From assembly GCA_001818495.1 (NCBI GenBank), contig MHKS01000004.1, forward strand, positions 84,657 to 148,656: DNA of 64,000 nt, in the 5' to 3' direction. Shown here piece after piece: positions 19,276-50,372 of the stretch. Position 1 is the first letter of the stretch, and the number at the start of each line of letters is the position of its first letter. The notes beneath the pieces are model-generated. The model did not search any database. It saw only the letters and a program-made list of their open reading frames with translations, and was not told where the DNA came from. Source of the DNA: Candidatus Komeilibacteria bacterium RIFOXYD1_FULL_37_29 (GTDB lineage Bacteria; Patescibacteriota; Patescibacteriia; UBA1558; GWA2-36-10). Both the position numbers and the translations under genes were made by a program.

Positions 19276-19437
19276 AGAATTTTATTAACTAGTGATTTTA
19301 TTATAACATATTCATTGGATTTCAGCCATTGCTCTAGGTATTGTCAAATAGGGCAAAATATATTATTATATAGCAGTCTTTTACGCTATAGAGCTTCAAT
19401 GGCTTAGTGTATTGTTTTATTAGGGTAAAAGTATAAT

Positions 19438-19476
19438 TTAGGAGAGTTGGCAGAGTGGTTGAATGCGGCGGTCTTG
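19438..19476 (+). repeat. Partial 5' copy (about 39 nt) of the downstream tRNA-Ser(TGA) gene including 3 nt of upstream flank
   Basis: Exact direct repeat of 19575..19613, covering the acceptor 5' strand, D-arm and 5' half of the anticodon arm. No matching 3' half follows, so it is not a functional tRNA. Confidence 0.7.
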
Positions 19477-19577
19477 TTCCCTGTTTGTCCAAGAGCGTAG
19501 CGATTGGCAACAAACAGCAATCCCGCCAAAGGCGGGAAAAACCTCCAAGGTTATTTACTAAGCAGAAATTTATTTTA

Positions 19578-19665
19578 GGAGAGTTGGCAGAGTGGTTGAA
19601 TGCGGCGGTCTTGAAAACCGTTGAGCCGAAAGGTTCCGAGGGTTCGAATCCTTCACTCTCCGCCA
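19578..19665 (+). tRNA. tRNA-Ser (anticodon TGA), long variable arm
   Basis: Cloverleaf folded by hand. Acceptor GGAGAGT/ACTCTCC, anticodon loop CTTGAAA, variable arm TGAGCCGAAAGGTTCC, T-loop TTCGAAT, CCA encoded. Confidence 0.85.
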
Positions 19666-19741
19666 GTCCTCGTAGCTCAATGGATAGAGCGTTTGGTTGC
19701 GGTCCAAAAGGTTGCAGGTTCGATTCCTGCCGGGGACGCCA
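19666..19741 (+). tRNA. tRNA-Arg (anticodon reads GCG)
   Basis: Begins immediately after tRNA-Ser. Acceptor GTCCTCG/CGGGGAC with one G-U pair, anticodon stem TTTGG/CCAAA, loop TTGCGGT, T-loop TTCGATT, CCA encoded. Confidence 0.65.
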
Positions 19742-19755
19742 TTTATTTAATTTTT

Positions 19756-19846
19756 GGAGAGGTGCCTGAGTGGTTGAAAGGGGCACCCTGCTAAGGTGTT
19801 ACTCCGTTTTTCGGGGTCGAGGGTTCGAATCCCTCCCTCTCCGCCA
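19756..19846 (+). tRNA. tRNA-Ser (anticodon GCT), long variable arm
   Basis: Acceptor GGAGAGG/CCTCTCC, anticodon loop CTGCTAA, long variable arm, T-loop TTCGAAT, CCA encoded. Confidence 0.85.
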
Positions 19847-19865
19847 TAATTTATTTTTTACTCTA

Positions 19866-19887
19866 CTGCCCTAAAAGGCGGTTTTTT
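19866..19887 (+). terminator. Weak intrinsic terminator after the tRNA cluster
   Basis: CTGCC/GGCGG stem (one G-U) followed by TTTTTT. Confidence 0.35.
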
Positions 19888-19901
19888 GTTATAATATTAA
19901 T

Positions 19902-20706: not shown

Positions 20707-21447
20707 TTAATTATTTTTGGCTAAGACTAGGCAAATTATATTGGAATAATTATTTTTCGTCAATACTTTGGCGGCTTGATTTAAAGTAGCCCCAGTTGAG
20801 GTGACATCATCGATTAGTAGGATTTGGGAGCAGTGCCGCATTTGTAGTGGCACTGTTTTTTGGTTTATTTCAAAAATATCTAAGACATTTTTTTGCCGAG
20901 CGATTTTATTTAATTTTGCTTGTGGTGGATTATTTTTGGTTCTGATTAAAAGAGGAGAGTAAGGCCGATTTAATCGCTTGGCTAATTTTTTAGCCAACAG
21001 CTCTGTCTGGTCAAAACCACGTTTTCTTTTTTTGTTTTGATGGAGTGGTATATTGACTATGATGGTATCTTTTCCCAAGGCCAAGTGTCGAGCTTGCTTT
21101 TCCAGTATATCTATCAGTGGTTCAGCCATGTTTTCCAAATAATTGTATTTATAGTTTTTTATTAATTTTTGGACGAGCTGGTTTTGGTAATCACAAGAAG
21201 AGTAGCAGGCTTTAAAATAGGTTTTTTCTTGGTCTGGCCAGTAAATGGCTTTTGGCTCGCTTAAGATAATATCATTTAAACAAAAACCACAGCAGAGTGA
21301 TCCTTCACTGTGACAGCCCAGGCAAAATTGTGGCCAAATAAAATCTAAGAGTATTTTAAAAACCTTTTTAATGTAAAATAAAAAGGTTTTTACATCGCTT
21401 TTTCCCGCGTACCGGGATCCCGCTTCGCGGGGCTTCCTTCCTATCAT
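20707..21447 (-). CDS. comF: ComF family competence protein (phosphoribosyltransferase-fold, N-terminal zinc ribbon)
   Basis: Double zinc-ribbon CLGC...CCGFC followed by the PRTase motif LLIDDVTSTGATL. Confidence 0.8.
   Translation of the reverse strand: MIGRKPREAGSRYAGKSDVKTFLFYIKKVFKILLDFIWPQFCLGCHSEGSLCCGFCLNDIILSEPKAIYWPDQEKTYFKACYSSCDYQNQLVQKLIKNYKYNYLENMAEPLIDILEKQARHLALGKDTIIVNIPLHQNKKRKRGFDQTELLAKKLAKRLNRPYSPLLIRTKNNPPQAKLNKIARQKNVLDIFEINQKTVPLQMRHCSQILLIDDVTSTGATLNQAAKVLTKNNYSNIICLVLAKNN
21404..21431. repeat. G+C-rich near-perfect palindrome CCCGCG-TAC-CGGGATCCCG-CTT-CGCGGG inside the comF 5' coding end
   Basis: Read directly from the sequence. It encodes the first residues of ComF, 6-40 nt downstream of the clpC stop. 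An A/T-rich 9-bp hairpin flanks it at 21362..21390. Confidence 0.5.
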
Positions 21448-50251: not shown

Positions 50252-50282
50252 ATAAATTACGGGGTCGTAGTTCAGCTGGTTA
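50252..50282 (+). repeat. Partial 5' copy (31 nt: 9 nt of flank plus the first 22 nt) of the downstream tRNA-Asp gene
   Basis: Exact direct repeat of 50364..50394, followed by a G+C-rich hairpin CCCGCC...GGCGGG. Confidence 0.7.
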
Positions 50283-50372
50283 CCTGCCCGCCTTCGCGAG
50301 CATCGCTCGGGATCAGGCGGGGAACGTATTATAAAACAGGTTTTGGTAGAAAGTATATTAAAAATAAATTAC

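Follow-up and report, generated by a model that had tools for sequence, protein, structure and literature searches.

Hairpin-interrupted tRNA 5' fragments in a Komeilibacteria genome: probable relics of a GIY-YIG nuclease cassette family

What might explain why the 5' part of a tRNA-Ser(TGA) gene stands twice in a bacterial chromosome, the first copy broken by hairpins and the second belonging to a complete gene? The question is raised by 64,000 nt of Candidatus Komeilibacteria bacterium RIFOXYD1_FULL_37_29 (contig MHKS01000004.1), a stretch that we refer to as a whole as the window; labels from L002 to L133 denote contigs or loci fetched for comparison. The 137-nt unit at this tRNA-Ser gene, and a 112-nt unit at a tRNA-Asp gene of the same window, are probably degenerate members, without an open reading frame (ORF), of a selfish tRNA-gene cassette family. 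Full-length cassettes of this family start with the native 5' piece of a tRNA gene behind its native promoter, and the D-loop or anticodon loop of this piece is interrupted by a single or double GC-rich hairpin. The tRNA piece breaks off about 6-20 nt past the hairpin and is followed by a short A-rich leader, by a gene for an 80-84-aa, domain-only GIY-YIG protein (UPF0213/YhbQ/Slx1 type), and by a complete tRNA gene that starts no more than about 20 nt from the end of the ORF or, in some cases, overlaps it.

Two hairpin-interrupted tRNA fragments in one window

At the tRNA-Ser(TGA) gene, positions 19437-19476 are identical to 19574-19613, a 40-nt exact direct repeat with a spacing of 137 nt (exact-repeat scan, direct reading, repeat finder). 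The repeat consists of TTTA and nt 1-36 of the gene, and its homology reaches 48 nt at 94%. The locus is laid out as follows.

19341..19369, + strand: sigma-70-like promoter TTGTCA-17-TATTAT, resident, of the tRNA cluster (promoter scan and relatives)
19437..19476, + strand: displaced 5' fragment, 4 nt of leader plus tRNA-Ser(TGA) nt 1-36, comprising the 5' strand of the acceptor stem and the D-arm and running into the anticodon loop (...GGTCTTG); exact copy of 19574-19613
19477..19537, + strand: hairpin module inserted in the anticodon loop of the fragment (direct reading, hairpin scans, folding)
19481-19517: hairpin 1, 8 bp + 4 bp, CTGTTTGT (19481-19488) pairing with ACAAACAG (19510-19517), inner CCAA/TTGG
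19493-19503: loop motif of hairpin 1, GAGCGTAGCGA
19521-19537: hairpin 2, TCCCGCC-AAA-GGCGGGA
19538..19543, + strand: AAAACC, tRNA sequence resumed (nt 37-42, identical to 19614-19619), which then breaks off (direct reading)
19544..19577, + strand: AT-rich spacer with no coding capacity left, at the place where full-length cassettes have the GIY-YIG ORF
19578..19665, + strand: intact tRNA-Ser(TGA) (ARAGORN; Rfam RF00005, 57.9 bits)
19666-19741 and 19756-19846, + strand: tRNA-Arg(GCG), then tRNA-Ser(GCT), directly 3' of tRNA-Ser(TGA) (ARAGORN)

An earlier note on this DNA had described the exact copy 137 nt upstream of the gene, correctly except for a length of 39 nt that is one short. The two hairpins that it named, one of 8 bp and one of the form CCCGCC-aaa-GGCGGG, are present at 19481-19517 and 19521-19537, and they do follow the 40 nt of exact identity. 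The copy does not end there, as the note had it: AAAACC, directly 3' of hairpin 2, is nt 37-42 of the gene, and the hairpins thus stand within the tRNA copy.

The same layout at tRNA-Asp, also claimed in the note, is present with a shorter repeat (31 nt exact, 50252-50282 and 50364-50394, spacing 112) and an insertion at the D-loop.

50252..50282, + strand: displaced tRNA-Asp 5' fragment, gene nt 1-22 preceded by 9 nt of leader, with its end in the D-loop; exact copy of 50364-50394
50283..50321, + strand: nested GC hairpin in the D-loop of the fragment, CCCGCC...(CGAGC-ATC-GCTCG)...GGCGGG
50322..50327, + strand: GAACGT, tRNA-Asp sequence resumed (nt 23-28, identical to 50395-50400), which then breaks off (direct reading)
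50328..50372, + strand: AT-rich spacer, the last 9 nt of which, ATAAATTAC, repeat the leader of the fragment
50373..50449, + strand: intact tRNA-Asp(GTC) (ARAGORN; Rfam 70.9 bits)

Apart from these two cases, no exact direct repeat of 20 nt or more at a spacing of at most 400 nt occurs in the 64 kb. The interval between the copies is 98 nt at tRNA-Ser and 81 nt at tRNA-Asp, and hairpins with a stem of 6 bp composed entirely of G and C occur in only four places of the window, two of which are these spacers. A similar palindrome (CCTGCC...) occupies the position of the Asp hairpin in the D-loop of a tRNA-Thr fragment in L113. The tRNA-Ser spacer ends in AAATTTATTTTA, which resembles the ORF-tRNA junction region of the units in L010, a relative treated below. 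Compared with all fetched loci by blastn-short, the two spacers matched through hairpin 2 only, and no ORF remnant was found in them.

A tRNA intron, whether of group I or of the bulge-helix-bulge type, was rightly set aside in the note. The 3' half of the tRNA is missing after the insert; with introns of up to 300 nt allowed, ARAGORN found only the intact genes and no intron-containing tRNA; and Rfam yielded no intron match. At gathering scores Rfam recognised only tRNAs and the transfer-messenger RNA (tmRNA) in the whole window, and at E <= 10 it gave nothing credible in the spacer when 19300-19900 was searched. Group I introns do occur in tRNA genes of Patescibacteria, but they are unrelated to the layout of hairpins and fragments described here (PMC13011429). 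Four further candidates were rejected. A split or permuted tRNA does not agree with the presence of the intact gene, the spacing and repeat structure do not fit an array of the clustered regularly interspaced short palindromic repeat (CRISPR) type, and a transposase-style target-site duplication would not leave the hairpin in only one of the two copies. Nor was a terminator function adopted for the GC hairpin: A residues follow it on the + strand, and the promoter/terminator scan flagged only a weak terminator on the minus strand.

The note had offered an attL/attR-type scar as one origin of the repeat. On that account an element with a tyrosine recombinase brought a replacement 5' half into the gene and later lost nearly all of its DNA, leaving attL and attR 98 nt apart. 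Partial tRNA genes of prokaryotes usually do arise from integrase events, and the direct repeat of a partial tRNA gene beside an intact one is what both have in common (PMC9897764). An integrase-type truncation of a tRNA-Thr gene is also found in the comparison set, in L114. Typical att repeats, however, cover the 3' part of the tRNA, bound an element that bears an integrase, and end at the crossover, whereas the repeat here is of the 5' part, an interval of only 98 nt separates the copies, and neither an integrase nor cargo is found between or beside the repeats. The flanks of both tRNA loci are housekeeping genes in conserved synteny (RecG, DUF5673-like, MFS, Lgt and DHODH genes). Since tRNA sequence resumes past the hairpin (AAAACC in one case, GAACGT in the other), the hairpin is a loop insertion and not a crossover boundary. 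The same kind of insertion, 30-60 nt long, occurs in D-, anticodon and T-loops of many fragments, and two independent, near-complete deletions would be needed within one window. We therefore regard an integrase scar as very improbable. As for L114 itself, this variant of the L113 locus has at 1730-2243 a tRNA-Thr(GGT) cut in the anticodon loop. Unrelated DNA comes next, then a further tRNA-Thr and an integrase gene of phage type; this is a classical integrase event beside GIY-YIG units.

Population contigs and orthologous loci

Is the structure real, and which of the two 5' ends is the native one? The tRNA-Ser structure is identical in seven of eight independently assembled contigs (JGI, ENA and NCBI; different assemblers and samples), and every population contig that spans the Asp unit contains it, with no empty allele among them. 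One contig of the same population, L002, is without exactly one unit of 137 nt, and the sequence on both sides agrees at 100%. A collapsed repeat, which the note had held out as a refutation, or a mis-join would account for a difference of exactly one repeat unit, and an N-gap does lie nearby in another contig, L003. Set against the agreement of contigs from different assemblers and samples, the constancy of the Asp unit, and the occurrence of the same architecture in unrelated genomes, including a full cassette in the closed genome CP066687.1, an assembly or scaffolding artefact has a negligible probability.

Several population contigs differ from the window in other ways. In L008, in the region of window positions 19666-19900, the third tRNA is tRNA-Ser(CGA) and not tRNA-Ser(GCT), the first 28 nt being common to both; two hairpins, GGCGAGATCTCGCC and TGCCAAA...TTTGGCA, come after it, and then a TCCGCCA stub. 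In L003 the stretch between tRNA-Ser(TGA) and tRNA-Arg, beside the N-gap, holds an extra copy resembling tRNA-Ser(GCT), a hairpin (GGCGAGACTCGCC) and a stub of the sequence TCCGCCA. In L130, 22 nt are deleted from the intact tRNA-Asp (matching about 50421-50442 of the window), which would destroy the T-arm and may be an assembly error or a defective variant.

Orthologous tRNA loci were compared in 16 loci from GTDB genomes, fetched via a 193-aa neighbour gene, a comparison that the note had proposed, and in which an ordinary promoter-region duplication with no structured spacer would have spoken against its reading. The same kind of relic is present in 4/16 (L015, L010, L021 and L024), and the orthologous tRNAs of L009 and L011 have no duplicate or unit of any sort. 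Together with L002, these loci make the unit polymorphic for presence and absence at the same site among close relatives. The relative most like the window is L015, in which a copy of tRNA-Ser(TGA) nt 1-36 is followed by CCACCGCC-TAC-GGCGGGG, TCCCGCC-ACA-GGCGGGA and then AAAACC, so that the breakpoint at gene nt 36 and hairpin 2 are common to both. L010 has copies of nt 1-14 of tRNA-Ser(TGA) and of tRNA-Ser(GCT), each followed by a near-identical double hairpin (the D-loop version), and in its GCT unit an 83-aa GIY-YIG ORF (Pfam PF01541, E 9e-7) lies between the hairpins and the intact tRNA. The variant in L021 affects the D-arm; that in L024 lies on the 3' side, its hairpins being in the T-loop. 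The breakpoints thus vary among relatives, nt 14 in one and nt 36 in another. Much as in the alternative origin named in the note, a small tRNA-targeting element, the layout is probably the trace of a small tRNA-associated mobile element. Full-length relatives carry a small GIY-YIG gene in place of the AT-rich spacer.

The relatives also indicate which copy is the older. A promoter block TTGTCA/TTTACA...TATTATATAGCAGTCTT (TTGTCA-17-TATTAT...AGCAGTCTT) stands directly upstream of the intact tRNA-Ser(TGA) in the duplicate-free L009 and L011, whereas in the window, L010 and L015 it stands upstream of the fragment and not of the intact gene. The fragment is therefore the native, ancestral 5' end of the gene, and everything from the hairpin through nt 36 of the intact gene is added material.

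Could the 5'-half copy and its hairpins instead be a selected part of the pre-tRNA, serving as a regulator of processing or folding, as a decoy, or as a small RNA released by RNase P, and be kept identical by selection? In the window as in L015, the fragment matches the tRNA of its own genome at 100%, even though this tRNA has a different D-loop in each; it lies downstream of a conserved promoter and is probably transcribed; and its predicted fold is compact. Within-genome identity would, however, follow equally from a recent event or from gene conversion between adjacent repeats. The unit is absent from L002, which is otherwise identical in sequence, and from the close relatives L009 and L011; the breakpoints differ (nt 14 against nt 36); no Rfam family is matched; and the folding z-scores of the leaders, -1.5 for the Ser unit and -1.7 for the Asp unit, are not significant for the units as wholes. 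A functional leader is, on balance, improbable, though exaptation of the unit is conceivable.

The nuclease, its cassettes and the hairpin module

The GIY-YIG protein of L010 has 159 homologues of 80-84 aa, in Patescibacteria, Ignavibacteria and Bacteroidota. Seven residues of its catalytic site are invariant in the alignment (Y5, Y16, G18, R26, H30, N31 and E62), and the nearest solved structures are the single-domain UPF0213 proteins 1zg2 and 1ywl (BH0048 and EF2693). The UPF0213 family (YhbQ/YazA) groups with the structure-selective nuclease Slx1 (PMC7017083). PADLOC returned no defence-system match for the protein, and NCBIfam and PHROGs only weak ones, to intron or homing endonucleases. 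Among the fetched loci the ORF is present in L010, L028, L029, L041, L045, L073, L074, L078 and L103-L133.

To what extent is this gene tied to tRNA genes and hairpins? Ten GIY-YIG homologues were picked without reference to either, and an intact tRNA gene on the same strand lies downstream of every one of them, at a distance of -9 to +86 nt from the domain end (eight tRNA-Ser and two tRNA-Tyr; in several the ORF runs into the tRNA). A hairpin-bearing 5' fragment lies upstream in 9/10, and the tenth context, L118, is an array of hairpin-bearing 3' halves. A hidden Markov model (HMM) scan of all fetched DNA bore out these contexts, and by the same scan the geometry of the D-loop type is fixed, the fragment starting 66-69 nt before the ATG in six lineages.

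Some of these ORFs have no stop of their own before the tRNA (L111:1201-1461, L117:1001-1324 and L109:1201-1455). As annotated, the proteins run on into the 5' end of the tRNA-Ser gene, whose translation supplies their last residues, ...LESWQSG or ...WKGG, and since the stop is absent before the tRNA, cleavage by RNase P would leave a non-stop mRNA.

Another approach was a metagenome scan with hairpin 2 plus AAAAACC as the query. It gave 85 matches in 78 loci, many of which are due to chance, such as P-loop codons. In 19 of the 85 (22%, in 13 loci, against a background of 2.8%), GTCT[TC]G, the 5' side of the tRNA-Ser anticodon loop, stands just upstream, mostly at exactly one hairpin length from the match, and in nine of those 13 loci a GIY-YIG ORF follows right after the hairpins. 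Hairpin 2 occurs at the same tRNA position in L015, L027-L029, L041, L045, L073, L074 and L078.

The architecture extends over related Patescibacteria, contigs of the Ignavibacteria/Bacteroidota type and metagenome contigs of 58-61% GC, and over several tRNA species, a tRNA-Glu case (L051) among them. The complete order of 5' fragment, hairpins, resumed tRNA nucleotides, ORF and intact tRNA is found in L028, L029, L041, L074, L078, L073, L045 and L047. The tRNA resumes after the hairpins in at least eight loci besides the window and does so with differing sequences: GTCGGT in L108, GAGAGCG in L109, AATGCGGCGGTCTTGA in L111 and L117, and AAAACCGTTGTGGCGC in L028. Tandem arrays are present in L027, L029, L103, L113, L117, L118 and L045; in L027 and L029 they take the form of repeated units of fragment, hairpins and spacer ahead of the intact gene. 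Mirror-image arrays of 3' halves, each preceded by GGTCTTG and hairpins, follow the intact gene in L045, L046, L073 and L078, and 3' fragments with hairpins in the T-loop occur in L027, L028 and L041.

Two features of these loci bear on the window in particular. Units without an ORF stand beside units with one in L010, L029, L103 and L113, and in unit 2 of L029 the ATG and first codons of the ORF are kept and joined to the tRNA at a GGAG microhomology; by this remnant, ORF-less units are deletion derivatives of ORF-bearing ones. In both L041 and L132, the 5' and 3' fragments on either side have an acceptor stem in common, with an encoded CCA, and neither matches the intact tRNA that they enclose. 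Since the fragments agree with each other and not with the inner tRNA, the cassette brought a replacement tRNA. Fragment and intact gene also differ strongly in L109 and L078, whereas in the window they are identical, so that a displaced and an inserted origin are indistinguishable there. Intact tRNAs within cassettes often have no encoded CCA (L041, L132, L078, L073 and L045), and the displaced 3' fragments of L041 and L132 end in CCGCCA, a contrast consistent with differing origins of the intact tRNA and the displaced fragments.

The hairpin module also occurs apart from tRNA genes. Typically it has the form T-C-NNNN-loop(3-4)-NNNN-G-A, single, doubled or sometimes nested, and its stem variants, read descriptively, are all paired (CCGC/GCGG, CGCC/GGCG, AGCC/GGCT, GGCC/GGCC and CCAC/GTGG). 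In tRNA contexts it is found only in fragments and always in the D-, anticodon or T-loop, about 5-20 nt from the inner end of the fragment. Two near-identical copies occur within L010 and two within L028, and the 64 kb of the source genome hold three modules with differing sequences. Solitary intergenic copies lie in L049, L068, L070 and L089, and in the window:

21403..21431, no strand assigned: solitary GC double hairpin TCCCGCGTACCGGGA TCCCGCTTCGCGGG between clpB-like and comF-like genes, with no adjoining tRNA (double-hairpin scan, which found this one case against none in 20 Markov shuffles)

Gene callers of different assemblies extend the comF-like ORF through this hairpin (246 aa, N-terminus MIGRKPREAGSRYAG...) or split the gene.

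Hairpins also stand in frame, in both orientations, within conserved protein genes (L083:274-1044, and also L042, L043, L092, L031 and L100), the host proteins being RluD-like, a sigma factor, a Mur ligase, DnaG, YchF-like and ClpB-like. Their translation reads ..SAKGGPASGGKNP.. when they lie one way round and ..FPAQGGSASGG.. when they are reversed. In the RluD-like protein of L083 the result is an 11-residue insert, GPPPMAGSRQG, which is missing in 13 orthologues. Orthologues of this pseudouridine synthase (P0223, P0250, P0252, P0177, and a second site in L083) have other short lineage-specific inserts elsewhere, e.g. DPPLPVRQKANG and LLNLGNAKHRTKAASS, which suggests that small insertions of this sort may be common in proteins of Patescibacteria. 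From its distribution, the module behaves like a small mobile palindromic element, and no terminal repeats or target duplication were seen at hairpin modules. The loop motif GAGCGTAGCGA, or its complement TCGCTACGCTC, recurs in hairpin loops or inserts near tRNA fragments (window 19493-19503, L015 at about 2146-2200, L010 and L021), and it looks like a decayed CCGCGTAGCGG hairpin.

This independence of the hairpins raises the possibility that they came first and that the nuclease is irrelevant. A palindrome resembling a miniature inverted-repeat transposable element, with a preference for the loops of stem-loops, would have entered a spontaneously duplicated tRNA 5' region, the dead copy would have decayed, and the GIY-YIG genes would be hitch-hikers on tRNA promoters. 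The hairpins without tRNA or ORF agree with this (21403-21431 of the window, the four solitary loci and the in-frame copies), as do the position of the hairpin in fragments, always in a loop and several nt from the junction of fragment and cassette, and the lack of an ORF in the window. Left unaccounted for are the adjacency of GIY-YIG gene and tRNA in all ten contexts with hairpin-bearing fragments in nine of them at a fixed distance, the ORF-less units that are deletion derivatives, and the fragments of L041 and L132 that belong to a different tRNA from the intact one. Spontaneous duplication of a leader and 5' part at two tRNAs within 31 kb is in addition unlikely. We consider this explanation unlikely as a whole.

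A proposed mechanism and its closest known systems

How might such a cassette spread? If the units are members of a nuclease cassette family, the nuclease would make breaks in the DNA of tRNA genes, and these would be repaired from the allele that bears the cassette, the 5' piece and the intact tRNA serving as homology arms and all that lies between them being copied. The cassette could in this way spread without loss of tRNA function, and repeated cleavage with unequal repair would gain or lose tandem units. The hairpin module, itself perhaps a small mobile palindromic element, would mark or disrupt the displaced piece of tRNA. With the nuclease gene present in relatives and none in the window, the window unit could only be a degenerate derivative: its nuclease gene would have been deleted, and the remainder would be an inert leader that the transcript from the resident promoter includes and that RNase P cuts away when the tRNA matures. 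Recombination between the 40-nt direct repeats could then remove the unit altogether.

A number of points weigh against this interpretation. No GIY-YIG gene was found in the 64-kb window by tblastn or HMM scan, and what links the window to the nuclease is a common architecture, a common insertion site and one short hairpin found in both. Some of the loci compared were fetched by means of that hairpin, and to this extent the set is biased by ascertainment. In principle, the short form in L002 might have come from the collapse of the repeat during assembly and be no real allele, although this seems unlikely, as a 40-nt repeat is shorter than the largest k-mers of common metagenome assemblers. 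The protein is a catalytic domain only, with no DNA-binding domain, unlike the characterised GIY-YIG homing endonucleases, and we know of no cleavage activity or target for these 80-84-aa proteins. A profile of the family found no relatives in IMG/VR, and so gives no hint of the route of horizontal spread. Around the hairpin site, fragment and intact tRNA do not differ in the window or in several other loci, and a nuclease that recognised this site would cut its own intact copy too; judging by SegB, a phage enzyme discussed below, such self-cutting can be tolerated, yet it is not classical homing logic. The interpretation leaves unexplained by what means a nuclease of a single domain is led to its target, the origin of the first duplication (including its leader of 4-23 nt), and what the hairpin does, for which immunity of the displaced copy, a recognition structure for the nuclease and an independent parasite are candidates.

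A more speculative version, to which we give about one chance in four, would make the nuclease and the GC double hairpin together an unrecognised mobile element. The nuclease would be structure-selective and act on hairpin or cruciform DNA, would put hairpins into tRNA loops and occasionally in frame into protein genes, and would travel with a replacement tRNA so that the host survives. A still bolder variant would have the transcribed tRNA 5' fragment and hairpins act as a targeting or scaffold RNA for the nuclease.

Among characterised enzymes the nearest counterpart is SegB, the free-standing GIY-YIG homing endonuclease of phages T4 and T6, which cleaves inside tRNA genes and is enriched next to tRNAs; its breaks lead to homologous recombination, preferential inheritance and unstable tandem amplification of segments containing tRNA and nuclease genes, truncated nuclease copies included (PMC2330249; PMC13096335). 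A GIY-YIG gene among tRNA genes is common to both systems, and the tandem units, ORF-less units and presence/absence allele described here have their parallels there. SegB, however, is encoded by phages, is about 200 aa long and includes a DNA-binding part, whereas the 80-84-aa domain-only proteins are encoded on bacterial chromosomes, have no IMG/VR relatives and are nucleases by prediction, and hairpin-interrupted tRNA fragments have not been described at SegB loci.

The proposed cassette is also reminiscent of the mobile ORFs (mORFs) of fungal mitochondria (Allomyces atp6; Glomus atp6, atp9, cox2 and nad3), which bring along a substitute for part of a gene and displace the native part (PMC3630166). 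In both, an endonuclease ORF in an essential gene brings a copy of the displaced part, the native duplicate stays, and the inserted part can be foreign, as are the replacement tRNAs of L041 and L132. The fungal cases concern protein genes of organelles in which a C-terminal part is duplicated in frame; here the affected genes encode tRNAs of bacteria, the duplication covers their 5' part or all of the gene, and the displaced piece contains a hairpin module.

For the hairpins themselves there are precedents among palindromic elements, with which they share a length of 30-60 nt, a GC-rich sequence of one or two hairpins in AT-rich genomes, intergenic and in-frame copies, and compensatory stem variants. 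The Rickettsia palindromic elements are short palindromic mobile repeats that are tolerated within genes. To our knowledge, no known family of this kind has been described as occupying loops in displaced pieces of tRNA genes or as the partner of a GIY-YIG gene. The double-hairpin elements and GC clusters of fungal mitochondria are short palindromic mobile repeats too (PMC4478555, PMC2800124). In the full-text literature searched, outside which most subscription journals fall, GIY-YIG genes with hairpin-interrupted tRNA fragments are not described, and the family, which combines a free-standing homing-endonuclease cassette or mobile ORF with a palindromic mini-element, is apparently undescribed.

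A tmRNA gene lies at 56466-56850 on the - strand (Rfam RF00023, 122.7 bits), 6 kb downstream of the tRNA-Asp locus.

If the cassette interpretation is correct, many partial tRNA genes of uncultivated bacteria would be footprints of nuclease cassettes and not integrase scars, which would matter for tRNA annotation and for gene calling, the ORFs often being extended into the tRNA or across hairpins. The SegB principle would be extended from phages to bacterial chromosomes, and the fungal principle of a mobile ORF that carries a gene portion would be extended to RNA genes. A GC hairpin family of 30-60 nt that inserts in frame into essential proteins of Patescibacteria would be relevant to the many unexplained small insertions of these proteins. 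The UPF0213/YhbQ/Slx1-like mini-nucleases would gain a testable function, with tRNA-gene loops and GC hairpins as candidate substrates, and if the structure-selective version were true, it would provide the first biological role for the long-orphan YhbQ/YazA/UPF0213 family.

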